Of a stretch of 64,000 nt of DNA, positions 50,005-64,000 are shown in pieces. Numbering within the stretch: the first letter of the stretch is position 1; each line of letters starts with the position of its first letter. The DNA comes from Gammaproteobacteria bacterium (GTDB lineage Bacteria > Pseudomonadota > Gammaproteobacteria > Poriferisulfidales > Poriferisulfidaceae), in contig JAPOXW010000020.1 of NCBI GenBank assembly GCA_026706895.1, forward strand, positions 57,329 to 121,328, written 5' to 3'. The notes under the pieces are model-generated. The model saw only the letters and a list, made by a program, of their open reading frames with translations, was not told the origin of the DNA and searched no databases. Position numbers and translations under genes: made by a program.

Positions 50005-51387
50005 CTACAGCAGCAACGCGGTTCCCAGGCCGAGGAACGCCACGAACCCGACCACGTCCGTCACGGTCGTCAGGAGCACGCCGCCGGCCAGTGCCGGATC
50101 GATGTTCAAGCGTCGCAGAGTCGGTGGCAGCACCACGCCTGTCAGCGCCGCGAACACCATGTTGGCGATCAGCGCCAGCGCGATGACCGCTCCGATCATC
50201 CAGGTATCGAACCACAGCCCGGCAACCAGCGCGACCACGCCGCACCAGACCAGGCTGTTGACCAGCCCGACGCCGAGTTCCTTGAGCAGCAGGGCCCGCA
50301 CGTTCTGCGAGCTGACTTGGCCGAGCGCCATGCCCCGGATGACCAGGATCAGGGTCTGGCTGCCGGCGATGCCACCCATGCTGGCGACGATGGGCATCAG
50401 CACGGCCAGCGCCACCACGCGCTCCAGGGTGTCCTGGAACAGCCCAATGGCGGCCGCAGCGATGAAGGCCGTGATCAGGTTGACGCCGAGCCAGACCGCA
50501 CGCCGCCGCGAGGCGGACAATACCGAATCGAACAGGTCTTCGTCTTCGCTCAGTCCGACGTAGCTGTGCAGCGCCTCCACGCCTTCGTCGCGAATCACGT
50601 CCACCACGTCGTCCACCGTGATCCGCCCGAGTAGCAGGTTGTTCTCGTCGACCACGGCCGCCGACACCAGGTCGCGGTCCTCGAAGACCGCGGCGACCGC
50701 GCCGTCCGGCATGTCCGCCGGAATCGGCGGTCGGTCGGATTCCATCACCTCGCCGACCAGGGTGTCCGGGTCGTGCAGCAGCAGGGCGGTGATCGGCAGC
50801 ACGCCGCGGTAGTGTTCGAACCGGTCCACCACCATCAGCACGTCGGTGTGGCTCGGGATGCTCTCGTGCCGGCGCAGATAGCGCAGCACCACCTCCAGCG
50901 TGACGTCTGCGCGCACCGTGATCACGCTGGTGTCCATCAACCCGCCGGCGGTGTCCTCGTCGTAGGTCAGGACCGCCTCCAGCCGGGAGCGGTACTGCTG
51001 ATCCATGTCGTTGAGGATCTGCGAGCTGACGGCCTCCGGGAGATCGGCCAGCAGGTCCGCCATGTCGTCGATGTCCAGGCCCTCGGTCGCGCTGACCAGG
51101 GCGTCCTCGTCCATCTCGCCGATCAGGGAAACGCGGACCTCGTCGCCGACCTCGAGCAGGACTTCGCCGTCGTGCTCGTGGTCCAGCATGCCCCAGACGA
51201 TGAAGCGCTGGGCGCGCGGCAGGGATTCCAGCAGTTGCGCGACCTCGGCCGGATGCAGCGCCCGCAGCATCTTGCGGACCGTCTGCATGGTGCCGGAATT
51301 CAGGGCCTCGGCCAACGCCGTGACCTGCTCGCTCGGCGTCGGCACGGGCGGCTGGACAGGCGGCGGGGTGGGGACGGCGGCGGTCAT
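50005..51387 (-). CDS. mgtE: magnesium transporter MgtE
   Basis: N-terminal MgtE_N, tandem CBS domains, C-terminal 5-TM channel; 460 aa. Confidence 0.9.
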   Translation of the reverse strand: MTAAVPTPPPVQPPVPTPSEQVTALAEALNSGTMQTVRKMLRALHPAEVAQLLESLPRAQRFIVWGMLDHEHDGEVLLEVGDEVRVSLIGEMDEDALVSATEGLDIDDMADLLADLPEAVSSQILNDMDQQYRSRLEAVLTYDEDTAGGLMDTSVITVRADVTLEVVLRYLRRHESIPSHTDVLMVVDRFEHYRGVLPITALLLHDPDTLVGEVMESDRPPIPADMPDGAVAAVFEDRDLVSAAVVDENNLLLGRITVDDVVDVIRDEGVEALHSYVGLSEDEDLFDSVLSASRRRAVWLGVNLITAFIAAAAIGLFQDTLERVVALAVLMPIVASMGGIAGSQTLILVIRGMALGQVSSQNVRALLLKELGVGLVNSLVWCGVVALVAGLWFDTWMIGAVIALALIANMVFAALTGVVLPPTLRRLNIDPALAGGVLLTTVTDVVGFVAFLGLGTALLL

Positions 51388-51453
51388 GTGAGGCAGGGCA
51401 AATAAATGTTCAGGGCCTCGGCAAAGTCCCGGTGCTGGCGGTGGGTATGGCGC

Positions 51454-53193
51454 TCAGGCCTTCGCCAGGGCCTCGACCATCCCGTGGATCTTTTCCGGCT
51501 GCGGGCAGGCCAGGATCTCCTGGCACTGCTTCTGCAGTATTTCGGACGAAACGTGGTTGATGATCTGCTTGATTTCGAGCAGGGAACCCGGATGCGTGCT
51601 GAATTCGCGCAGGCCGAGCCCGATCAACAGCCGGGTCAGGCGCGGGTTGCTGGCCATTTCGCCGCACATGCTGACCGGTGTGCCGGCCTGCCGGCCGGCC
51701 TGAATCGTGTGGTGGATCAGGAACAACACAGCCGGGTGCAGCGGGTCGAACAGGTAGTGGACCTGGTCGTCAACCCGGTCGATGGCCAGCGTGTACTGGA
51801 TCAGGTCGTTGGTCCCGATCGACAGGAAATCCAAATGATGGGCGAAGACACTGGCGGAGATGGCAGCGGCCGGCACCTCGATCATGCCCCCGATCTTGAT
51901 CTCCGGGTCGTATGCGGCGCCTTCGGATCCCAGTTCCTCCATGCAGTCGCGGATCAGGGCCAGACTCTGCGACAGTTCGGAGCTGTTGGTCAGCATGGGC
52001 AGCATGACGTGGACGGGCCCGTGCGCGGAGGCGCGCAGGATCGCACGCAACTGCGCCATGAAGACGGGCTTGTTCTGCAGGGATCGCCGGATCGCACGCA
52101 GGCCGAGGGCGGGGTTCGGCGCGATCGCGCCTTCGTAGTCCGGGTCGAATTCCTTGTCGGCACCCAGGTCCAGGGTGCGGATGGTCAGCGGCTTGCCGTC
52201 CAGCGCGACGACCAGATCCCGATACACCTCGTACTGTTCGTCGGTGCTGGCGCCTTCGGGGCGGTCGAGGTAGAAGAACTCGGTGCGGTACAGCCCGACG
52301 CCTTCCGCCTGAACCTCATGCACATGGGGGATCTCTTCGATCAGGTCGATGTTGCACTTTAACGTGACCGACTGTTTGTCGCGCGTGATGGTCGGCTTGT
52401 CGCGCAGCGCCATCAACTTCTCTTCCCGCTCCTGCTCCGCGCGCTGGTACTCCCGGTACTGGTCGACCAGCCAGTTCGCGTCGTCGGCGCACAGGATGGT
52501 GCCGCCGTGCCCGTCGATCAGCACGAGCTCGCCGTCCTCCAGCAGCATGCCCGCGTCGTGCAGGCCGACCACCGCCGGGATCTGCAGGCTGCGGGCCAGG
52601 ATGGCGGTGTGCGACATGGAACTGCCGAACTGGGTGACGAAGGCGGCGACGTTCTGGTGCTGGATCAGCACGGTGTCGGCCGGCGTCAGGTCGTCCGCGA
52701 CCACGATGCGGCCGGTCAGGTCGCGCTCCTGGACTTCGGCCTCGCCCTCTTCGGTCTCGCTCAGGTTCTCCTGCACCTTGCGGATGACATGCTGCACGTC
52801 GTTCTTGCGCGTGCGCAGGTAGGCGTCCTCCATGCTGTCGAACACGGCGACCAGTTGCTCCAGGGTGTCCTCCAGCGCCCATTCGGCGTTGCAGGACTGG
52901 GCGCGGATGGTCTCCGCGGGCATGTCCACCAGCATGGCGTCGTCCAGCATCAGCAGGTGGGCGTCGAGAAAGCCGGTCACTTCCTGGCGCATTTTTTCGG
53001 GCACCATGTCACGCACTTCGCGCAACTGCTTGCGGGATTCCTCCAGCGCCTCGTTCAGGCGCTCGACCTCGGACCCGATCTGGTCCGGCTCCAGGGTGCG
53101 CTTCGAGATATGGGTCTCACCACGCTTGAGGACGTGGACCCAGCCCTGGGTAATGCCTCGGGAAACCCCGATGCCGTTGATGATCATGGGCAT
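51454..53193 (-). CDS. ptsI: phosphoenolpyruvate-protein phosphotransferase (PTS enzyme I, no GAF domain)
   Basis: 579 aa with the EI PEP-utilising domain; no N-terminal GAF, so a plain EI rather than EI-Ntr. Confidence 0.85.
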   Translation of the reverse strand: MPMIINGIGVSRGITQGWVHVLKRGETHISKRTLEPDQIGSEVERLNEALEESRKQLREVRDMVPEKMRQEVTGFLDAHLLMLDDAMLVDMPAETIRAQSCNAEWALEDTLEQLVAVFDSMEDAYLRTRKNDVQHVIRKVQENLSETEEGEAEVQERDLTGRIVVADDLTPADTVLIQHQNVAAFVTQFGSSMSHTAILARSLQIPAVVGLHDAGMLLEDGELVLIDGHGGTILCADDANWLVDQYREYQRAEQEREEKLMALRDKPTITRDKQSVTLKCNIDLIEEIPHVHEVQAEGVGLYRTEFFYLDRPEGASTDEQYEVYRDLVVALDGKPLTIRTLDLGADKEFDPDYEGAIAPNPALGLRAIRRSLQNKPVFMAQLRAILRASAHGPVHVMLPMLTNSSELSQSLALIRDCMEELGSEGAAYDPEIKIGGMIEVPAAAISASVFAHHLDFLSIGTNDLIQYTLAIDRVDDQVHYLFDPLHPAVLFLIHHTIQAGRQAGTPVSMCGEMASNPRLTRLLIGLGLREFSTHPGSLLEIKQIINHVSSEILQKQCQEILACPQPEKIHGMVEALAKA

Positions 53194-53465
53194 GGTTCGG
53201 CGCCTTCTCCAAATCCGCTCTCAAACAGGGCGACGAGGGCCTGCATGGCCTCTTGTTCGTCCGGGCCGCTGGTGAACAGCCGCACCGGGGTGCCGTGGGT
53301 GGCCGCCAGCATCATGATGCTCATGATGCTCTTGGCGTTGGCCCGCTTGCCTTCCTTTTCGATTTCCATTTGCGCCTGGTACTGGCTCGCTTCGCTGACC
53401 AACTTGGCGGCGGCCCGCGCGTGCAGCCCGAGCTTGTTGACGACGGTAGCGTTTTTTTCGATCAT
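53184..53465 (-). CDS. phosphocarrier protein HPr/NPr
   Basis: 93 aa; His-15 motif NKLGLHARAAAKL; regulatory Ser region. Confidence 0.85.
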   Translation of the reverse strand: MIEKNATVVNKLGLHARAAAKLVSEASQYQAQMEIEKEGKRANAKSIMSIMMLAATHGTPVRLFTSGPDEQEAMQALVALFESGFGEGAEPCP

Positions 53466-53863
53466 TCGGACTCTCCCGCTTCGATAATGATGCCGATGCG
53501 GCCATTGGTGGCCAGGCTTTCGGCAAGTTGACTTCGGCTGCGTTGCTGCAGGTTGAACAGCTTCACGACCATCGGCAAATTGATGCCGGAGACGAGGGTG
53601 GTTTCCGGATATTCACGCATCAGCCGCTTCGCCAGGTTGTACGGTGTGGCGCCGTACAGGTCGGACAGGATCAGCAGGCCGTCCTTGCAGTCCAGCGATG
53701 CGCAAAGCTCCCGGAGTTCGGCGAGGGCGGCGTCCAGGTCGCCGTCCTCGATGACTCCGTAACAGGCCAGGTTTTCGGGGGGGCGCGCGAAAATCCGCGA
53801 CGCGACGTCCACCAGCTGCTGACCCAGCCGGTGATGCGTGATTGTCAGCATGCCTACGCTCAT
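53462..53863 (-). CDS. PTS EIIA component, mannose/fructose family
   Basis: 133 aa; N-terminal GMLTITHHRLG active-site His context like ManX IIA (IVIGTHG); LILSDLYGATP; GINLPMVVKL. Confidence 0.75.
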   Translation of the reverse strand: MSVGMLTITHHRLGQQLVDVASRIFARPPENLACYGVIEDGDLDAALAELRELCASLDCKDGLLILSDLYGATPYNLAKRLMREYPETTLVSGINLPMVVKLFNLQQRSRSQLAESLATNGRIGIIIEAGESE

Positions 53864-54726
53864 GGTTGGGCCTCCATGTCCCGGTGCAGCATGGTGATCT
53901 GCAGGGTGGTGCTGTCCGAAAGCAATTCGGCCAGTTGTTCCACCAGGTAGACCGAGCGGTGCTGTCCGCCGGTGCAGCCGATCGAGATGTTCAGGTAATG
54001 CCGCCCCGCCTCGACGAAAGAGGGGATCCAGTGATCCAGAAACTTCTTCAGGTCTTCGAGCATGGCGGCGGCCTGTGGCTGATTCGAAAGATAGTCGCGA
54101 ACCGCGGGATCCGTGCCGTTGAGCGCGCGCAATTCGTCCACCCAGTGCGGGTTTGGCAGGCAGCGCGAGTCGAACACAAAGTCCGAATCGCTCGGCACCC
54201 CGCTCCGGTAGGCGAAGGATTGTAGCAATACTGACAATGGGGCGCGATCGAGTTTCAGGCGCTGGCGCAGCAGGGTGCGCAGCTCATGGACGTTGGTGCG
54301 GGAGGTGTCCAGGCGCAGATCGGCCAGGTTGGCGATCGCCGCAAGGCACTCCCGTTCCTGCCGTACCGCCTCGCGCAGGGTCGGGACCCGGTCGGCCAGC
54401 GGGTGCCGGCGGCGCGTATCGTTGAAGCGCCGGATCAGGGTGTCTTCGTCGGAGTCGAGGAACATCACGGTGATATCGCAGGGCAATTCCCGGATCTGTT
54501 CCAGGATGGACGGGAGCCGGTCCAGGTCTTTCGGCAACGCGCGGGCATCCATGCCGATGGCGGCTTGCTTCGGGTAGTGCGAGTCCGGCTGCATCAGCAG
54601 TTCCACGTACTCCAGCAAGAGGGTCGGCGGCATGTTGTCGACGCAGTGCGCGCCGAAGTCCTCCAGCGTGTCCAACGCCACCGATTTTCCCGAGCCCGAC
54701 AGGCCGCTGACGATGACGAGCTGCAT
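53860..54726 (-). CDS. rapZ: RNase adapter protein RapZ (YhbJ)
   Basis: VIVSGLSGSGKSVAL Walker A; 288 aa; between ptsN and HPr as in the rpoN operon. Confidence 0.9.
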   Translation of the reverse strand: MQLVIVSGLSGSGKSVALDTLEDFGAHCVDNMPPTLLLEYVELLMQPDSHYPKQAAIGMDARALPKDLDRLPSILEQIRELPCDITVMFLDSDEDTLIRRFNDTRRRHPLADRVPTLREAVRQERECLAAIANLADLRLDTSRTNVHELRTLLRQRLKLDRAPLSVLLQSFAYRSGVPSDSDFVFDSRCLPNPHWVDELRALNGTDPAVRDYLSNQPQAAAMLEDLKKFLDHWIPSFVEAGRHYLNISIGCTGGQHRSVYLVEQLAELLSDSTTLQITMLHRDMEAQP

Positions 54727-54729
54727 GGT

Positions 54730-55182
54730 TCAGGGCTGGGCGAGGGCCGCCAGCAGTGGCTTGGCCTCGCGGGAGGTGCGAAGCGTCTTGAGGTGCTCGG
54801 GCGAGTCCAGGATCTCCGCCAGTTCCTTCAGGTATTGCAGGTGGATGTCCTCGGCTTCGCTCGGCACCGCCAGTGCCACGAACACGTCGACCGGCTGCCC
54901 GTCGACCGCGTCGAAATCCACGCCCTTGGTCAGGGTCAGGATGGCGGCAGAACTGTGCGTCCCGTCGGGTATCCGGCAATGCGGGATGGCGACCCCGCCA
55001 CCGAGCCCGGTGCTGCCGAGGCGCTCGCGCGCGGTCAGCAGGTCCAGCAGTGTGCGGGAGCCGGTGGTTTCCAGGCCTCCGGCCAGGGCCTCGCTCAGGA
55101 TTTCGAGCGCACGCTTCTTGCTGCCGATTTGCTGCTGCAACAGGAGGCTGTCGGGGCGCAGCAAATCCAGGATGCCTCGCAT
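54730..55182 (-). CDS. ptsN: PTS IIA-Ntr (nitrogen regulatory EIIA)
   Basis: 150 aa; active-site His region GGGVAIPHCRI. Confidence 0.85.
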   Translation of the reverse strand: MRGILDLLRPDSLLLQQQIGSKKRALEILSEALAGGLETTGSRTLLDLLTARERLGSTGLGGGVAIPHCRIPDGTHSSAAILTLTKGVDFDAVDGQPVDVFVALAVPSEAEDIHLQYLKELAEILDSPEHLKTLRTSREAKPLLAALAQP

Positions 55183-55189
55183 GGCCGCC

Positions 55190-55510
55190 TCAGTTCAGCT
55201 GATGGTGGGTAATCTGGCTCTGATGGTGGTCTTTGCGTTTTTCCTTGTACTTGAGGATCTGTCGATCCAACTTCCCGGTCAGCGTGTCGATCGCTGCATA
55301 CATGTCGCTGTGTTCGGCGCGCGCGTGCATGTGGTGGCCCCGGACGTGCATGGTGGCTTCCGCGCGGTGCGTGTCGTGTTCGACCGCAAGCGTGATCTGG
55401 GTATTGATCACGTCATCGAAGTGACGGGTTAGGCGTTTAAATTTGGTGTGGATGTAATCGCGGAGCGGAGAGGTGATTTCTAGGTGGTGTCCGGTGAGTT
55501 TCAAGTTCAT
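55190..55510 (-). CDS. hpf: ribosome hibernation promoting factor
   Basis: MNLKLTGHHLEITSPLRDYI... YfiA/HPF fold; ATG 55510 preferred over the extended track ORF. Confidence 0.85.
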   Translation of the reverse strand: MNLKLTGHHLEITSPLRDYIHTKFKRLTRHFDDVINTQITLAVEHDTHRAEATMHVRGHHMHARAEHSDMYAAIDTLTGKLDRQILKYKEKRKDHHQSQITHHQLN

Positions 55511-55595
55511 AACAATACTTCCTCCGTGGCCCATCCATTATATACAGAGGGGAAGGGGTCTGGACACCCGGGCTGGAATCCGTCTGGGGTAGACT

Positions 55596-56477
55596 ATGAG
55601 CCGTTTTGGAATGTGTCCAATGCGCGAGGAATTCGGTGTGTCCGCGAAGAAGGCAGGTACATTCGCCTGGATCGTGACCGGTCTGGCGCTGGCGGCCGCA
55701 CCTCCGGCGCTGGCCGAATCCGCCTTGCACAAAGCGGCCCGCGCGGGAAATTTCGCGGAAGTGCAGAAACTGCTGGATTCAGGCGCGGACGTCAATTTAT
55801 TCAAGCAGGGCAAGACCCCGCTGCATCATGCGGCCCTGATTAATCCGAAACCCGAGGTTGTAGAGGCTTTGCTGGATGCCGGGGCCCAGGTGGGCGTGAA
55901 AGGGCATAACGACATGACGGCGCTGCATTTCGCGGTGGTCAACCCGACCCCGATGTCCGCACATCCGCAGTCGAACGTGGAAGCGGACAACAAATCAGGC
56001 GAGACGGCCCGGCGCCTGGAGGTGATCCAACTGCTGCTGGATGCTGGGGCGACGACGTATGCGAAGAACGAGGACGGCCTGACCCCCTTGCATCTGGCGG
56101 CGGGCCACTATTGGGATCCGGAGGTCGTGGACACGTTGCTGCTGGCGGGAGCATTCGTGGATGCAAGGGCCGAGAACGATGCGACCCCGTTGCATTTCGC
56201 GGCGGCCTTCAACGGAAACCCGGAGGTGACGCGATTGCTGCTGGATGCCGGGGCCGATGCGAACGCGCAGGATTCCGGGGGCCTGACGCCCCTGCATTTG
56301 GCGTCGCGCTTCAGGGGGTATGCGACGGTCGCACAGCTGCTGCTGGATGCGGGCGCGGACGTCAATGCGAAAGACCGCGAAGGCAAGACCCCGCTGGATT
56401 ATCACGCGGAGAGAGAAAACCCCAGTTGGCCCCAGGTTCTCGAGGATGTTGGCGGGAAATGCAACAGGAGCTGTTGA
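55596..56477 (+). CDS. secreted ankyrin-repeat protein
   Basis: signal peptide (AWIVTGLALAAAPPALA) then >=6 ANK repeats (G.TPLH.AA..G...V..LL.AGA); GC content like the host; probable start ATG 55620. Confidence 0.7.
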   Translation: MSRFGMCPMREEFGVSAKKAGTFAWIVTGLALAAAPPALAESALHKAARAGNFAEVQKLLDSGADVNLFKQGKTPLHHAALINPKPEVVEALLDAGAQVGVKGHNDMTALHFAVVNPTPMSAHPQSNVEADNKSGETARRLEVIQLLLDAGATTYAKNEDGLTPLHLAAGHYWDPEVVDTLLLAGAFVDARAENDATPLHFAAAFNGNPEVTRLLLDAGADANAQDSGGLTPLHLASRFRGYATVAQLLLDAGADVNAKDREGKTPLDYHAERENPSWPQVLEDVGGKCNRSC

Positions 56478-56561
56478 CGTACAGTGGACATTAACCTGAT
56501 TTTTAAAAATTTCACTACGCTGTGCAGGGATAAAAATCCGTATAAATATCGAGACTAGATG

Positions 56562-56978
56562 TTAATCAGATGTTTTAGTGCTTTTTTCTGCATCCAACAA
56601 GAATTCACAACATTCAAGAGTAAATTCTGCAATGCGTTCCATGTAAGCATCCATTTTTTCGCTACTGGCCTGAACCTGTTGCACCCAGAATTTGGCTTCT
56701 TTCCGGTATTCTTGTAATTGGTATTTTTTCTGGATGGTGTTTTTGGTTGTTTGAAGAAAAATTTCTCTTAAGGCTATCCGATCAATTCCAATTTCCGAGA
56801 AATGCTTGTGGTGGTGAACACGGTTACGGGCCTTTAGTTCCTCTTTGAACTCTTTGTTGAAATCATTAATGAAATCAGTGGCAAACTTCTTCACTCTACC
56901 TTTGGCATGTGCAGGCACTATATCTTTAAAGTACTCTTTGAGTCGCTGCTGGAACTGATAGCATCGACTAAAGTACAT
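56562..56978 (-). CDS. hypothetical protein (low GC), possibly the C-terminal part of a frameshifted gene
   Basis: 138 aa, Lys/Glu-rich helical, HHHKH; overlaps the next ORF by 61 nt in another frame; AT-rich islet. Confidence 0.35.
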   Translation of the reverse strand: MYFSRCYQFQQRLKEYFKDIVPAHAKGRVKKFATDFINDFNKEFKEELKARNRVHHHKHFSEIGIDRIALREIFLQTTKNTIQKKYQLQEYRKEAKFWVQQVQASSEKMDAYMERIAEFTLECCEFLLDAEKSTKTSD

Positions 56979-57304
56979 TTCACAGAATTGGTAATGTGGC
57001 TGCTACGAGTTACCGGAAGGTCTCGAAATGGATATCTTCGGAAGTAATACTCACATTCTTTTAATGAATTAATTATTAGATTTAGTTCTATATACCTTAC
57101 GGTGACTAAGTGCTGCTTTTCGACTTCCTCGGAAAAGTTGAATGCGCGCTCATACTTTTCGGTGTGGTTTGAGGCAATATCATCGAAAAATAATGTATGC
57201 TCGAACTTTTTTTCATTCCATTCTCTCCAGCCAGGATAGTCTTCCAAATCACGTATCCATCTTTGGATGGCCTCCGCTATCTGCGTCCGAGAAATATCTG
57301 TCAT
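56918..57304 (-). CDS. hypothetical protein (low GC), possibly the N-terminal part of a frameshifted gene
   Basis: 128 aa; last ~25 aa are Ser-rich out-of-frame-looking sequence; the downstream frame is open from a TAG at about 57003. Confidence 0.35.
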   Translation of the reverse strand: MTDISRTQIAEAIQRWIRDLEDYPGWREWNEKKFEHTLFFDDIASNHTEKYERAFNFSEEVEKQHLVTVRYIELNLIINSLKECEYYFRRYPFRDLPVTRSSHITNSVKCTLVDAISSSSDSKSTLKI

Positions 57305-57350
57305 TCCGAGCTTTGATGGGCTTGTTCAAAGGTTTGTATGGGAGGCTAAT

Positions 57351-57677
57351 CTATTCGGTGACGCGATAAACAAGTCTTTGCAAACTTCCGCTGACAATAT
57401 CAATCACGCTCGGGACAAGCACCTGCAGTTCCTGCAGACGCGTTCTGGAAGCAGCCATGACGATCACGGGTATAGGCAGCTTTTCCAGATTCTGCTGGTA
57501 TTCAATGCCTTGGTCGGCAGTGACAAACGCGTCAAACTTATGCATGGCTGCCTGTTGCAGCAGCGCGCCGTTCTTGCTTCCTGCCCAGCCCATTTGTTGG
57601 ACTGTGTGCAATTCGAACGATTCAGGAAAGAACGCCTTGATCTGTCTGGGAATGGACTCGTCAAGTAATAGTTTCAT
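57351..57677 (-). CDS. DUF5615-family PIN-like putative toxin
   Basis: 108 aa, MKLLLDESIP...FVTAD... PIN-like; immediately downstream of and overlapping a DUF433 gene. Confidence 0.65.
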   Translation of the reverse strand: MKLLLDESIPRQIKAFFPESFELHTVQQMGWAGSKNGALLQQAAMHKFDAFVTADQGIEYQQNLEKLPIPVIVMAASRTRLQELQVLVPSVIDIVSGSLQRLVYRVTE

Positions 57678-57885
57678 CCAGGCTCTCGACCAGCACTGCT
57701 TTTGCCTGATTCAGTACCTCGACCGCTTGGCTTCGCGAGACCGTGGGATGGTTGTCCAGAAACTCATCGATGGAGTCGCCTGCTTCCAGATATTCCATCA
57801 GGATGCGTACAGGAACCCGGGTGCCGGAGAAGACCGGCGTTCCACCAAGAATCTCGGCATCTTTGCTGATCACCGTATCTGTCAT
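57661..57885 (-). CDS. DUF433-family putative antitoxin
   Basis: 74 aa; ILGGTPVFSGTRVPVRILMEYLEAGDSIDEFLDNHPTVSRSQ is the DUF433 signature; 17-nt overlap with the DUF5615 gene. Confidence 0.65.
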   Translation of the reverse strand: MTDTVISKDAEILGGTPVFSGTRVPVRILMEYLEAGDSIDEFLDNHPTVSRSQAVEVLNQAKAVLVESLDETIT

Positions 57886-57979
57886 GGCTTATTCCTTGGC
57901 AAGCAATTATCAGATTATACGCCCGATTCTGGAGCGTCTGCTGATTGCCGCTTACCCGTGAATTCTTCGAAATTCTGTC

Positions 57980-58080
57980 TCAGAGCTGGAATTCTTCTCC
58001 TAGGTAAATCTCGCGTACTTGTGGATTTTCCACGATTTTCTCGCCTTTTTCCTCAGCGATTGACGTGCAGAGTACCTGTG
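57980..58080 (-). pseudogene. displaced duplicate of the lptB 3' end (gene-end remnant)
   Basis: reverse strand encodes ...SIAEEKGEKIVENPQVREIYLGEEFQL*, homologous to the true LptB C-terminus (...[28 protein letters not shown]); ~55 bp of ~85% nucleotide identity with 59043-59100. Confidence 0.55.
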
Positions 58081-58307
58081 GATAGTATGTGTTGCGGGAG
58101 CATCAGTGCAATCAGGCGGCAACTACATCACCAACCCCTCGTACATGAAACATATATAGACACGATATATAGATCTAACACTAGAAACTTTGTGTAGTGT
58201 GCACCATTTTCTGCTACAATTCGCATCTACTACCCCCGTCATTTCGCTGGCGGGCCGCAGGGTCTTAGGAAGAAATTCTTGAGGCCCTTTGCTTTATCTG
58301 GATGAGA

Positions 58308-58928
58308 ATGCGCACAGCCGTTTATATAGATGGATTCAACTTCTATTATGGGGCGGTAAAAGATACGGCCTATAAGTGGCTAGATTTCAAACAATTGTGC
58401 AAAATCATATTAAAACCACATCACAACATTACTTCTATTGTGTACTGAACGGCCAAAGTCAGATGGATGCCTGCAGACCCGGGTGCTCCTAGGCGACAAG
58501 CTACTTACTTCAACGCGATTAAATCTTATATTCCGGAATTGTCTATTATTCGTGGTCATTTTTTGGAAACTAAATTGCTTTGCAGGCCAGTCAACCCGAA
58601 GCACGGGAATCTGATTGAGGTTTTCCGTACAGAAGAGAAAGGATCTGATGTTAATCTGGCAGTGCACATGGTAAATGATGCGCATAAAGACAAATTCGAC
58701 TGCGCGATAGTTATCAGCAATGACAGTGATTTGGCAGAAGCAATGCGGATCGTGAAAAACGAATGCGGGAAAATGGTCGGGCTTTTCACGCCTTGGAGGA
58801 GGTATGCATCAAAACAACTTATGATGCATTCAAGCTTCCAACGAACGATTCGTAAAAGCAGTTTAGCGAAAAGCCAACTTCCGAATCCTATACCAGGGAC
58901 AAAAATTTATAAACCTAAGCAATGGTAA
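58308..58928 (+). pseudogene. NYN-domain (PIN-like RNase) gene interrupted by an in-frame TGA
   Basis: MRTAVYIDGFNFYYGAVKDTAYKWLDFKQLCKIILKPHHNITSIVY-TGA(58446-58448)-TAKVRWMPADPGAPRRQATYFNAIKSY...EKGSDVNLAVHMVNDA...VISNDSDL; both halves in one frame give a full NYN domain; low GC. Confidence 0.6.
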
Positions 58929-59042
58929 ATGCAAATGGCACTTACTGCGAAAGGACTTGGCATTGAAAACTGTCCCGAATTGAATTCAATGCGAGAGCGA
59001 ATAAGAAAACCCCAAGAATAAAACGTAAGTGCAGTTTTTTCC

Positions 59043-59768
59043 TCAGAGTTTGAATTCAGCTCCCAGGTAAGTCTCGCGTACTTGCGGATTTTCCAGGATC
59101 TCGTCGGGTTCGCCCTCGGCTATGATGCTGCCCTCGGAGAGGATGTAGGCACGGCGGCAGATGCTGAGGGTCTCGCGCACATTGTGGTCGGTGATGATGA
59201 TGCCGATGCCGCGCTCCTGCAATTGCTGGATGATCGACTTGATGTCGGCCACGTGCAGGGGGTCCACGCCGGCGAACGGTTCGTCCAGCAGGATGAAGGC
59301 GGGGTCCATCGCCAGCGCGCGGGCGATCTCGACCCTCCGGCGTTCTCCGCCCGACAGCGAAAACCCGCGGCTGTCGCGGATTTCGGCAATGGAGAATTCC
59401 TCAAGAAGAAGTTCCAGGCGCGCTTCCCGTTCTTCCTTAGACAGGGACAGTTGCTCAAGCACACCCAAGACGTTCTCCTCCACCGTCAGGCGGCGGAACA
59501 CGGAAGGTTCCTGGGGGAGGTAGCCGATGCCCCGGCGGGCACGCTGGCTCATGGACAGCCCGGTGATGTCCTGGGTGTTCAGGAAGATCTGGCCCCGGTC
59601 GCAGGGCACCAGCCCCGTGATCATGTAGAAGCAGGTCGTCTTGCCTGCACCGTTCGGGCCAAGCAGCCCGACCACCTCGTGGTCGCTTGCGTGCAACTCG
59701 ACCTCCGAGACGACCTGTCGGTCGCGGTAGGACTTGCACAGGTCCTGCGCTTCGAGCGTGGCCATCAA
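59043..59768 (-). CDS. lptB: LPS export ABC transporter ATP-binding protein LptB
   Basis: GPNGAGKTT Walker [16 protein letters not shown] signature, [11 protein letters not shown] Walker B; 241 aa. Confidence 0.9.
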
Positions 59769-60829
59769 TCAGAGTCGGTCTTCAGGCGGATTCGCACCCG
59801 CTCGGAGGGCTTCCGGGTGACGGGAGTCTCCACGCGTTCCTCGTCGATCAGGTAGACGATTTCGTGTCCCGTGACCTGGTGCGCGTCGACGCGCAGATTG
59901 ACGTCTTTCTTCAGGATCGCCTTGCGCTGCGGAATCTGGTAGAAGATGCTGCCGGCGCTTGCGCGGAGCGGTTTCCCGGAATCGAGGATCTGGGTCCAGC
60001 GGGCGTTGCCTTCGGCGTGCAGGGCCTGGACCCGGTCGCCTTCGGCGTGCACCGTGAGCCGGTCGGCGAGCAGGACCATGTCTCCTTGCGTGGCACGCAC
60101 GTCCCCGTGGTAGACGCTGACCTCCTTCTGGGCGTCCCACTCCATCCGTTCCGCGCTCAGGTCGAGCGTTTCCTCCGAATTGTCCGCGGCGTGTGCGGTG
60201 CCGAACGCTTCCTTCAGGATTTTCTCCAGCAGCGCCTGCGTGGGCTTTTCCGTGGACGGAGGGAACTGGCGGGCCTGCACGTCCTGCTGCAGCTGGCCGC
60301 CCGAGCCGTCCAACTGGTAGTCCAGCCCGGTGCCGCGCATCACCGCATGGGATTGGCTGAGCACGACCGCCTGCTCGCTGTAGACTCGTCCGTTCTCCGC
60401 GTCCAAGGTCAGCGATTCGCCGCGCATCAGGACCGGGGAATAGTCCGGGGGGTCGAGCAAGAGTTCCACGTTTTCATCCAGGGTGACCCGGGTCTCCCGG
60501 ATTTCCCCGTGCCGAGCCGAGGCCGAGGAATTTTCGAACGCGGGGTCGAGCCAATGCAAACGGGGGGCATCGAGGTTCAGGATTTCGCTGCCGAGATACT
60601 GGTCCAGCCGTTCGGCGACGACTTCGTAAAGCAGTTCTCCCTTCAGGTCCCGGATCCGGTGGCGTACCTGCAGGTAGCTGTTCTCGGGGACCCCTTTGTC
60701 AGGAGCCGAAGCGGTTTCCTCCGGGGTCGGGGTTCGGGTCAGGGCCCACAGGCCGATGACGACGACCAGCGCGAGCAGCAGGGTCAGCAGCCGGCGGAGG
60801 TTCATTATTTTCTGAGGATCCAGTCGCAC
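59765..60829 (-). CDS. apparent LptC-LptA fusion protein (LPS transport bridge)
   Basis: single 354-aa ORF; N-terminal TM anchor plus LptC-like domain (aa ~1-190), then an LptA/OstA-N-like domain ([20 protein letters not shown]...GNARWTQ...[15 protein letters not shown]); no stop or frame change between them; probable start ATG 60805. Confidence 0.55.
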
Positions 60830-61275
60830 ACGTCCCGCACCGCGCCCATGCCGCCCGGATTCGGGGTGATCCAGTCCGCGGCCTGGCGCGCTTCCATGCG
60901 GGCATCCGCGACCGCCACGCCCAGGCCGGCGGCCTCAAGCAGGGGCACGTCGGCGATGTCGTCGCCCATGCAGACGACCTCATTCCAGCGAAAACCGAGC
61001 CGCTGGATGAGGGCATTGGCTTCAGCGTACTTGTCGTCGCAACCGAGGATGACTTCCTCGATGCCCAGTTCCTGCAACCGCTCTTGGGTCGCCTTGCTTG
61101 CCCGGGCGCTGATCACCGCGATCTGCACGCCGACGTCGTACAGCAGGACCAGCCCCTGGCCGTCGTGCACGTGGAAGCATTTGCTTTCGGTGCCGTCCTG
61201 GGAAAGGTACAGGCGGCCGTCGGTCAGGACGCCGTCGACATCCAGGATCAGCAGTTTGACGTCCCGGGGATTCAT
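60805..61275 (-). CDS. kdsC: 3-deoxy-D-manno-octulosonate 8-phosphate phosphatase
   Basis: 156 aa from ATG 61275; HAD motif LLILDVDGVLTDG, GDDIAD. Confidence 0.85.
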   Translation of the reverse strand: MNPRDVKLLILDVDGVLTDGRLYLSQDGTESKCFHVHDGQGLVLLYDVGVQIAVISARASKATQERLQELGIEEVILGCDDKYAEANALIQRLGFRWNEVVCMGDDIADVPLLEAAGLGVAVADARMEARQAADWITPNPGGMGAVRDVCDWILRK

Positions 61276-62252
61276 CGCAGTCCGGCCGCGACCAGGTCGT
61301 GCATGTTGAGGACGCCGACCAGTTGGTCGTCCTGCATGACCGGGGCGGCGTTGAAGCGACGATCCCGCATCCGGTGCAGCACGTCGCGTGCGAGTTCGTC
61401 CGGCGCGGCAGTCTGAAAGTCCCGCGTCATCACCTGATCCACCGTCGTGACGTGGACGTCCACCGCGTCGCCCAAGCAACGGCGCAGGTCACCGTCGGTG
61501 AACACCCCGACGACCTGTCCGCTCTCATCCAGCACGGTCGTCATGCCGAGCCCCTTCTCGGAGATCTCGGGCAGGGCGTCCCTGAGCAGGGTCCCGACCG
61601 CGACTTTCGGGATTTTCTCTCCGTCGCGCATCACGTCGCGGACCGTGGTCAGCAGTTGCCGGCCCAGGTTGCCGCCCGGGTGAGTGCTCGCGAAGTCCTC
61701 CGGCTTGAAGCCGTGGACGTGCATCAAGGCGACGGCGAGCGCATCGCCCATGGCCAGTGTGGCGGTGGTGCTGGAAGTGGGGGCGAGGTTGAGCGGGCAG
61801 GCTTCGCGTGCCACCGGGATTTCCAGGTGAAGATCGGCTTTACGAGCCAGCGTGGATTCCGGCTGGCCGGTCAGCGCGATGATGGTGGCGCCGATCTGGC
61901 GCACCAGCGGCAGCAGGTTCAGCAATTCCTCGGTTTCGCCGGAAAAGGACAGGGTCAGTACGACGTCGTTGCGGGTGATCATGCCGAGGTCGCCGTGGCT
62001 GGCCTCGGCCGGATGGACGAAGAACGAGGGGCTTCCGGTGCTGGCGAAGGTGGCGGCAATCTTCTGTCCGATGTGGCCGGACTTGCCCATGCCGATGACG
62101 ATGATGTGCCCGGTGCACTTGCTGAGCACTTGGCAGCATTCGACGAAATCCTCGCCGGTGCGGTCCGCCAGGCTGCTTACCGCATCCGCTTCATGCCGCA
62201 GTACGTCGCGGGCGACCTCAAGGATGTCCGAAGTTTGTTCAGAGTCGGTCAT
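61272..62252 (-). CDS. kdsD: arabinose-5-phosphate isomerase (SIS plus tandem CBS)
   Basis: 326 aa from ATG 62252; SIS motif VIGMGKSGHIG, C-terminal CBS pair. Confidence 0.9.
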   Translation of the reverse strand: MTDSEQTSDILEVARDVLRHEADAVSSLADRTGEDFVECCQVLSKCTGHIIVIGMGKSGHIGQKIAATFASTGSPSFFVHPAEASHGDLGMITRNDVVLTLSFSGETEELLNLLPLVRQIGATIIALTGQPESTLARKADLHLEIPVAREACPLNLAPTSSTTATLAMGDALAVALMHVHGFKPEDFASTHPGGNLGRQLLTTVRDVMRDGEKIPKVAVGTLLRDALPEISEKGLGMTTVLDESGQVVGVFTDGDLRRCLGDAVDVHVTTVDQVMTRDFQTAAPDELARDVLHRMRDRRFNAAPVMQDDQLVGVLNMHDLVAAGLR

Positions 62253-63199
62253 ACAGGCACCATCATGCGCTCGGCGTTCCAGCCTAGATAGCCTATATAG
62301 CACACCAGCAGCAGGATTGCGCCGGATCGGGTCAGCCGGAAGCCGCCCCGGCGAAACAGGAGGAAGCCGAGCAGGGCGGTGAGCGCCAGCATGATCAGGC
62401 CGTCGTACCACAGCATCGGCGACACCGAAAACGGGCGGATGGCGGCGGGAACCCCGACCACGCCGAGCGTGTTGAACAGGTTGGAACCAACCACGTTGCC
62501 GAGGATCAGCCCGCTGCCTTCAGCACGCTTTAACGAGGCCAGCGATGCGGCGAGTTCCGGCAGCGACGTGCCGATGGCGACCAGGGTCAGGCCGATCAGC
62601 AGTTCATCCACTTCCAGCATCCGGGCCAGCCCGACGGAAGCCCAGACGAGCGCCCAGGCGCTGCCGAGCAGGAGGACCAGCCCGATCAGGATCAGGGCCA
62701 GGGCGGTCACGGTGGTGTGTTCGGTCGACTTGCTGGTGATCGGGGCGGCGGCCTGCCCGCTGCGCACGATCCAGGTGATGATTCCGACTAAAGCGATCAT
62801 CAGGAGGATGCCCTCCCAGCGTCCCAGTGCCAGGTCCGACAGGATCAGGAACACGCCCGCGGTGCCGAACAGGATCAGGGGGATGTCGCGTTTCACCAGG
62901 GTTCGATCGGCGGCGAGCGGGAGAATCAGTGCCGAGATGCCGAGGATCAGCGCGATGTTGGCAATGTTCGAGCCAAAGGCGTTGCCGATCGCAATGCCAC
63001 CGCTGCCGCGGAAGGCAGCCGTTGCAGAAACGAGCAGTTCCGGCAGGCTGGTGCCGAATCCCAGGATGACCACGCCAATGGCGAAGGTCGAGATGTTCAG
63101 TTGGCGGGCTAAAGAGGATGAACCCTCGACCAGTCGGTCTGCGCTCCAGGCCAAGACCACGAATCCGACTGCGACGACGATCAGGTAGGTTAGGAGCAT
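62249..63199 (-). CDS. yrbG: Ca2+/Na+ antiporter (YrbG/CaCA family)
   Basis: two alpha-repeat GTSLPEL motifs; ~10 TM; canonical position upstream of kdsD. Confidence 0.8.
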   Translation of the reverse strand: MLLTYLIVVAVGFVVLAWSADRLVEGSSSLARQLNISTFAIGVVILGFGTSLPELLVSATAAFRGSGGIAIGNAFGSNIANIALILGISALILPLAADRTLVKRDIPLILFGTAGVFLILSDLALGRWEGILLMIALVGIITWIVRSGQAAAPITSKSTEHTTVTALALILIGLVLLLGSAWALVWASVGLARMLEVDELLIGLTLVAIGTSLPELAASLASLKRAEGSGLILGNVVGSNLFNTLGVVGVPAAIRPFSVSPMLWYDGLIMLALTALLGFLLFRRGGFRLTRSGAILLLVCYIGYLGWNAERMMVPV

Positions 63200-63441
63200 G
63201 GGCGTAATCGGGACAGATGTTCGGGTGGATACGGGGAGAAAACGGAGCCAGCGCTTCCGTCGCAAGGGGCGAGGAAAGGGTGTCGGCAGGGCTGTAATTT
63301 TACCCCACGGCCACTTGGGTCCGGGGCTGGTGAAAGGCCTGCAACGCCCGCGGGGAGTTTGGTAGACTAGGCCGATGCGCTGGATCGAGACGCCATTTTG
63401 CTCTGGAATCCAGATGTTGCCAGCAGCGCATTTTTCTTTTC

Positions 63442-64000
63442 ATGACTGACCGGCTGCGCGCCTTCTACGATCACTTGGTGCTGGACCGCCCGTGGGCGGT
63501 GCTGGTGTTCCTGGCCGCGGTGGTGGCCGTCATGGTGACGCAGGCCGGGAATTTCCGGCTGGACGCCTCGTCTGATTCCTTGCTGCTGGAAGGCGACGAG
63601 GACCTGCGCTACTACCGCAAGGTGCTCGAGCAGTACGGCACCCGGGATTTCCTGTTCGTGACCTACAACCCGGACGCGCCGATGCTCGATCCGGCCATGC
63701 TGGAGGGCTTGGAGGCCCTGCGCGAAGACCTTTTGGCAGTGCCGGCGGTCGAGGACGTGGTCACCATTCTGGATGTGCCGCTCCTGAATTCTCCGCCGAT
63801 CGACTTCACCGAGCTCGGTGACGCCAACCGCACCCTGCGCGATGCCGACACCGATCAGGAGTTGGCGCAGCGCGAACTGACGACCAGCCCGTTCTACAGC
63901 GACATGCTGATGAGCAAGGACGGGGAGACCACTGCTCTGGCGGCCTACCTGAAGGCTGACACGGCCGGCAACGAGTTGCTGCGCGAACGCACCCGGCTTC
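63442..64000 (+). CDS. MMPL/RND-superfamily exporter (3'-truncated by the window end)
   Basis: ATG 63442; N-terminal TM then a large periplasmic loop start (RLDASSDSLLLEGDEDLRYYRKVLEQYGTRDFLFVTY), typical of MMPL/RND exporters; the ORF runs off the window. Confidence 0.5.
   Translation, partial: MTDRLRAFYDHLVLDRPWAVLVFLAAVVAVMVTQAGNFRLDASSDSLLLEGDEDLRYYRKVLEQYGTRDFLFVTYNPDAPMLDPAMLEGLEALREDLLAVPAVEDVVTILDVPLLNSPPIDFTELGDANRTLRDADTDQELAQRELTTSPFYSDMLMSKDGETTALAAYLKADTAGNELLRERTRL

Follow-up and report, generated by a model that had tools for sequence, protein, structure and literature searches.

A probable lineage-wide fusion of the lptC and lptA genes in sponge-associated sulfur bacteria

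The LPS export locus of a sponge-associated sulfur bacterium (Candidatus Porisulfidus) contains a single gene, here designated lptCA, that specifies an LptC and an LptA domain in one polypeptide; relatives of this bacterium carry the fused gene as well. We consider it probable (roughly 0.78) that this is a genuine, lineage-wide lptC-lptA gene fusion, the product of which is anchored in the inner membrane and supplies the LptC and LptA parts of the LPS bridge as one covalent unit. The covalent tether likely holds; that is, a conserved AHA loop between the two domains would stay uncleaved after export. A search of the full-text literature for a natural LptC-LptA fusion found no paper describing one, the matches being engineered or reporter fusions. 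Positions given below are those of the window, the 64,000-nucleotide (64-kb) stretch of DNA analysed here.

The fused gene and its surroundings

One unbroken open reading frame occupies the minus strand from 59765 to 60829 and measures 354 codons if counted from a GTG. Translation probably starts at the ATG at 60805 rather than at the GTG at 60829, since this ATG overlaps the stop codon of the preceding kdsC gene and the homologues start at the same position: proteins of 345-351 aa all align from the methionine encoded at 60805. So defined, lptCA (59765..60805, minus strand) comprises 346 codons followed by a TGA stop at 59765-59767. A preliminary inspection of the DNA alone (hereafter the sequence-only reading) had described a single uninterrupted frame between kdsC and lptB. 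This description is borne out, and the frame is held across relatives. The proposed length of 354 aa fits the open frame, which does run to 60829, and is to be replaced by 346 aa for the likely protein. Around the junction between the domains, the two alternative frames are full of stops, while GC3 in the fused frame stays between 0.80 and 0.93 with no break. Scanning residues 177-220 for in-frame ATG, GTG or TTG codons returned none; hence there is no internal start in this interval.

The identity of both neighbours agrees with the sequence-only reading. The upstream gene, kdsC (60805..61275, minus strand), encodes a 156-aa KDO-8-phosphate phosphatase matching TIGR01670 with 141 bits (cut-off 107), and its stop codon overlaps the lptCA ATG in the sequence TAATG. 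Downstream, the lptB gene for the LPS exporter ATPase (59043..59765, minus strand) matches TIGR04406 with 364 bits (cut-off 240); its ATG at 59765 overlaps the lptCA stop (TGATG). Farther upstream on the same strand lie a gene for a 326-aa KdsD-type arabinose-5-phosphate isomerase with Pfam SIS and CBS domains (61272..62252), the stop of which overlaps the kdsC ATG (ATGA), and a gene for a YrbG-type Na/Ca exchanger (62249..63265; Pfam Na_Ca_ex, E 3.6e-54), whose start codon is uncertain. The resulting order, yrbG-kdsD-kdsC-[lptC-lptA]-lptB, is E. coli-like and is shared by two related loci (L016 and L020). Throughout the interval 59763-62255, kdsD, kdsC, lptCA and lptB are chained by the stop/start overlaps ATGA, TAATG and TGATG, an arrangement that implies that the genes for KDO synthesis and for LPS export are translationally coupled. 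A scan of the 58800-63500 segment for promoters and terminators found nothing useful.

The rpoN gene, normally found between lptB and hpf, is missing from the window and from all related loci of the fused clade. No RpoN-box motif was found in the 64-kb window; control loci do show the motif. The gap where rpoN would be expected (55535-59042) contains an ankyrin-repeat ORF (55596-56477, plus strand), a DUF433/DUF5615 (PIN-like) pair (57351-57885, minus strand) and an NYN-domain fragment (58467-58928, plus strand). Beyond it lies the hpf-ptsN-rapZ-EIIA(Man)-PtsI-MgtE cluster (approximately 50005-55534).

Domains, predicted fold and the linker

The sequence-only reading had recognised an N-terminal transmembrane anchor with an LptC-like domain, followed by an LptA domain in the C-terminal half, and had suggested aligning the halves separately to LptC and LptA profiles. 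Each half exceeds the curated cut-offs of its family. Residues 6-179 match the NCBIfam LptC model TIGR04409 with 80.5 bits (cut-off 38) over profile positions 2-179 of 180, and residues 9-179 match Pfam PF06835 with 72.6 bits (cut-off 21). The LptA model TIGR03002 (NCBIfam) matches residues 208-340 with 94.3 bits (cut-off 71.7) over positions 4-138 of 142, and Pfam PF03968 matches residues 217-323. Residues 203-344 also match an HMM derived from 124 free LptAs (positions 16-159 of 177; 128.8 bits). The LptA domain is complete, and the LptC-like domain does follow a membrane anchor.

This anchor is a predicted helix formed by residues 3-23 (60737..60799; this and all following segments are on the minus strand), with a 12-residue Kyte-Doolittle maximum of 3.42. 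It is hydrophobic in all homologues in spite of a dN/dS of about 1; the sequence of the helix thus seems barely constrained as compared with the periplasmic domains, where values are 0.2-0.37. A flexible stalk (residues 24-45; 60671..60736), rich in Pro, Glu and Thr and variable in the alignment, joins the anchor to the first jellyroll; its pLDDT is below 50 over residues 24-43. The LptC beta-jellyroll (residues 46-180; 60266..60670) is followed by a 33-aa linker (residues 181-213; 60167..60265), by the LptA beta-jellyroll (residues 214-320; 59846..60166) and by a C-terminal tail (residues 321-346; 59768..59845). In the tail, the motif ERVRIRL is the counterpart of the last LptA strand: the free-LptA HMM pairs eRVrviiqP with ERVRIRLKT, and dN/dS is 0.20. 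Confidence of the structural model is low in this part.

Structure prediction, also put forward in the sequence-only reading, yielded two jellyrolls. The full-length AlphaFold2 model (pLDDT 83.3, pTM 0.75) opens with a helix (3-23) and a disordered stalk (24-43); its two jellyrolls, at 47-180 and 214-319, are separated by a further helix (190-200). Trimming to the core (residues 46-326) raised these scores to a pLDDT of 90.4 and a pTM of 0.87, and the mean pLDDT was at least 83.8 in all five models of this construct. The only stretch of the core with pLDDT below 50 is AHAAD (residues 204-208). Both predicted halves match solved structures, one with the LptC and the other with the LptA beta-jellyroll fold. 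We read the core model as two jellyrolls predicted in a confidently fixed mutual arrangement, since a pTM of 0.87 would not be expected were the domains free to move relative to each other.

Judged from alignments, the 33-aa linker is best described as the recognisable remnant of a former LptA signal peptide, including its cleavage site. When the protein is aligned to free LptAs, the linker falls on their signal peptides and AxA sites, the AxA being represented by AHA. One such free LptA, P0051, reads ...WLAACALGAAHA/APNT (the slash marks the site). The HMM of the 124 free LptAs, with the consensus MKALLLLLLLLLAASALA/LESDREQPIEIEAD, pairs its ALA site with AHA and from there follows the entire mature sequence as far as the last strand. 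With mature LptA of E. coli and K. pneumoniae, the alignment opens with TDQPIHIES against SEETLDLSA. In the family alignment (48 sequences), the residues kept in this region are L193 (47/48), A204 (47/48), H205 (45/48) and A206 (48/48).

The linker no longer has the hydrophobicity of a signal peptide. Its best 12-residue Kyte-Doolittle mean is 0.59, and the fused proteins average 0.78, as compared with 2.34 (5th-95th percentile 1.6-2.96) for the signal peptides of the free LptAs (n=124) and 2.2-3.5 for the N-terminal anchors of the fused proteins themselves. What was the hydrophobic core now contains four charged residues. The most divergent members, P0045 and P0048, retain a segment that is closer to a signal peptide (1.3-1.75). 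The sequence-only reading had considered the junction (residues 191-212) not hydrophobic enough for a signal peptide before LptA. The figures agree with this as far as a functional signal peptide is concerned; what needs amending is the notion of an arbitrary junction, in that the segment is a signal-peptide remnant. The linker helix has a hydrophobic moment of 0.46, a value reached by 12% of shuffled sequences, and is thus moderately amphipathic only. Given this amphipathicity, we make no claim for a membrane-surface helix.

The alignments show how the fusion arose. The lptC gene was joined in frame to lptA, the LptA signal peptide turned into the linker, and charged residues took the place of its hydrophobic core. 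From standard Sec topology rules we infer that selection removed the hydrophobicity, since a hydrophobic segment behind a translocated domain would halt translocation as a stop-transfer sequence, and LptA would remain cytoplasmic. The linker would then be a clear example of a signal peptide neutralised once its gene became fused behind a periplasmic domain. The LptA part lacks a cleavable Sec signal peptide of its own, by which LptA becomes a soluble periplasmic protein; in sequence, fold and locus the fused protein has the attributes of LptC and LptA together. It would work like LptA without being a free-standing LptA, since there is no internal start and the segment before AHA is too weakly hydrophobic (0.59 vs 2.34).

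Conservation of the fusion and rival readings

A protein search of 5.8 billion sequences returned 43 clusters of 41-94% identity. All 40 near-full-length clusters (343-351 aa) are fused and contain both Pfam domains; their source assemblies are from ENA, NCBI, JGI and Logan, with contigs of up to 2.0 Mb. The three others (P0025, P0038 and P0042) are damaged gene calls: P0025 is N-terminally truncated and P0038 has an internal gap. P0042 was rejected as an LptA-only relative; it lies on a frameshift-ridden contig (L018), and its C-terminal end is read from lptB in the wrong frame. This contig (ENA ctg335193_3x_l, the name of which gives 3x coverage), from a related organism, has genes broken by frameshifts, and it recommends caution with split or fused gene calls from such assemblies.

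A scan of one genome per species identified 10 loci with an intact fused ORF, in independent assemblies from separate projects. Five are complete Candidatus Porisulfidus chromosomes of 1.57-2.02 Mb (OZ243950.1, OY288106.1, OZ220480.1, OZ241993.1 and OZ220694.1), and the Theonella sponge symbiont 'Candidatus Porisulfidus sp. TsSOB', with 94% identity, is also among the 10. A profile search, exhaustive over 1.84 billion representatives, gave eight matches at E<=1e-30, six of them full length (345-364 aa). Below this discrete fused clade the scores drop sharply to ordinary free LptAs, some 170 aa long, with E values around 1e-20. The distant fused members carry both domains and lie on contigs of 1.3-1.7 Mb; at the distant loci L016 and L020, the gene order is the same and rpoN is absent between lptB and hpf. 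Since these loci share both traits, the fusion marks a family-level lineage of small-genome Gammaproteobacteria. The question, raised in the sequence-only reading, of whether relatives have the same fusion is thus answered positively by 10 assemblies, 40 clusters and six distant full-length representatives. Pairwise dN/dS values (LptC domain 0.25, linker 0.37, LptA domain 0.24, tail 0.20) indicate that every periplasmic segment is under purifying selection. Changes in linker length are in frame, as with a 5-aa deletion in P0039.

Adjacent genes are often fused artefactually, and contig L018 provides a related instance of frameshift damage. The sequence-only reading had itself pointed to a missed stop or frameshift at the junction as a danger. 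An error of sequencing or assembly, or a decaying pseudogene, is effectively excluded here by the comparison of relatives: the frame is intact in ten assemblies from separate projects and in 40 near-full-length clusters spanning 41-94% identity, GC3 is continuous over the junction, dN/dS is 0.2-0.37 and indels are in frame. Another reading accepts the fusion as real and adds free copies of LptA, encoded elsewhere, that would extend the bridge into an LptC-LptA + LptA(n) + LptD assembly. It is compatible with the main reading of a covalent bridge segment and draws on the unsettled copy number of LptA per bridge and on the C-terminal strand kept by the fused protein, to which a further jellyroll might dock. 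It is improbable, nonetheless, in view of the small size of the genomes (1.57-2.02 Mb) and of the location of the fused gene at the orthologous lptA position. No second LptA-like ORF was found in the 64-kb window nor within about 6 kb of the gene at 14 related loci, and the only apparent LptA-only relative, P0042, is the frameshift artefact from the 3x contig.

The conserved AHA loop lends itself to a different interpretation, in which the fused gene would encode a polyprotein. The LptC anchor would export the chain, and signal peptidase I or another periplasmic protease would cut between AHA and the following A, releasing an ordinary free LptA and leaving an ordinary LptC behind. The site has the appropriate features: position -1 is Ala in 48 of 48 sequences, position -3 is Ala in 47 and Val in one, position +1 is never Pro, and a Gly, Ser or Pro helix-breaker occurs at -5 (P0045) or -4 (the others). 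Moreover, AHA coincides exactly in the alignment with the point at which free LptAs are cleaved, AHAAD is the sole low-confidence stretch of the core model and is presumably exposed, and the most divergent members are more hydrophobic before the site (1.3-1.75). The substrates of signal peptidase I, however, are signal peptides embedded in the membrane and cut at its surface, and the former core, with its four charged residues, scores 0.59 against 2.34 for real signal peptides. Furthermore, the His at -2 is conserved too (45/48), which the peptidase rule does not need and which points to another constraint, and the remainder of the linker is about equally conserved. A second natural fusion clade (see below) lacks a site of this kind and the space to accommodate one, and an engineered, uncleaved LptC-LptA fusion is functional. 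Taken together, these observations make cleavage unlikely. The related idea that the relic has turned into a new internal processing or regulatory element, its AxA loop being cut in the periplasm in a possibly regulated manner, is quite doubtful. Were such a cut to occur, it would represent an undescribed polyprotein route by which a periplasmic bridge subunit is made in fixed stoichiometry with its membrane partner.

Proposed function and comparison with known systems

Returning to the uncleaved, genuine fusion, we envisage the following course of events. The N-terminal LptC helix would insert with its N-terminus in the cytoplasm, placing both beta-jellyrolls in the periplasm. By analogy with E. 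coli, the LptC jellyroll and anchor would dock on LptB2FG; this binding is predicted, lptB being the adjoining and apparently coupled gene. LPS extracted by the ATPase would then slide along the LptC groove into the LptA groove of the same polypeptide and from there, again as in E. coli, to the N-terminal jellyroll of LptD. The LptC and LptA grooves would be continuous across the junction. A possible docking strand is the C-terminal LptA strand, which is conserved (dN/dS 0.20). Under this scheme LptF-LptC and LptA-LptD would be the only non-covalent joints left in the bridge, the LptC:LptA ratio would be fixed at 1:1 and LptA would need no signal peptide of its own.

The fusion is a real but modest variation on the well-known Lpt system; its parts and pathway are textbook, and it leaves the understanding of LPS transport unchanged. 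It does affect annotation: NCBI labels P0034 only 'LptA', and a pipeline label of this kind conceals the presence of LptC. In E. coli, both the LptA copy number of a bridge and the side on which LptA is held are under debate. If the fused genomes have no other lptA, then one LptA per bridge, tied to the inner membrane, suffices for the envelope of a free-living cell. Single-molecule work in E. coli reportedly indicates that bridges are transient and that LptA is held more stably at the outer-membrane side; the fused lineage would do the opposite and hold LptA at the inner-membrane side.

Fusion of the two genes has occurred more than once. A second natural LptC-LptA clade, represented by P0053, P0194, P0152 and P0195-P0198 (39-52% identical to P0053), likewise has LptC ahead of LptA. 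At locus L019 (5001-6077; P0198), its fused gene also lies between kdsC and lptB with no separate lptA, and rpoN is kept downstream, unlike in the Porisulfidus clade. Only 4-11 residues separate the domain matches in the second clade, and a signal-peptide relic is absent; a linker this short implies that a direct covalent joint is tolerated. The nearest LptC relatives of this clade are ordinary proteins of 190-192 aa, and its origin is independent. One member carries the automatic JGI label 'LptC/LptA'. The singletons P0068 and P0078, on short contigs, are also fused. Given the second independent clade and these singletons, fusion of neighbouring lptC and lptA is rare but recurrent. A JGI metagenome protein of 760 aa, P0071, contains four LptA/OstA (PF03968) domains in tandem within a single chain and, from its sequence, looks like a covalent LptA oligomer.

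The E. coli LptC (YrbK) and LptA (YhbN) proteins are encoded at the same locus, with the same two beta-jellyrolls in the same order and the same LptC anchor. In E. coli, however, they are the products of separate adjacent genes, whereas here one polypeptide would fix LptC and LptA at 1:1. The boundary of mature E. coli LptA, which we take to be AFA/VTGDTDQP, falls on the residue equivalent to AHA/ADNSEET here; in the absence of a working signal peptide, LptA would not be independently soluble in the fused lineage unless cleaved. Covalent linkage of jellyrolls is found elsewhere in the system. In LptD, LptF and LptG, a single jellyroll is attached to a membrane domain, either a barrel or a permease; the LptC-LptA protein differs in that two bridge jellyrolls are joined to each other behind a single helix.

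The closest parallel is an engineered E. coli LptC-LptA fusion, built to avoid LptA oligomerisation (Nat Commun 2025, PMC12065857). This construct forms a stable complex with LptB2FG and mediates ATP-dependent transfer of LPS to LptD in nanodiscs in vitro. LptA oligomerisation is a practical obstacle to structural work on the full bridge (PMC12065857). A naturally stable, non-oligomerising LptC-LptA unit could aid such work. The engineered protein shares the covalent architecture and the function proposed here. It is a laboratory construct, whereas the fusion in the Porisulfidus lineage is natural, conserved and joined through a remodelled signal peptide.
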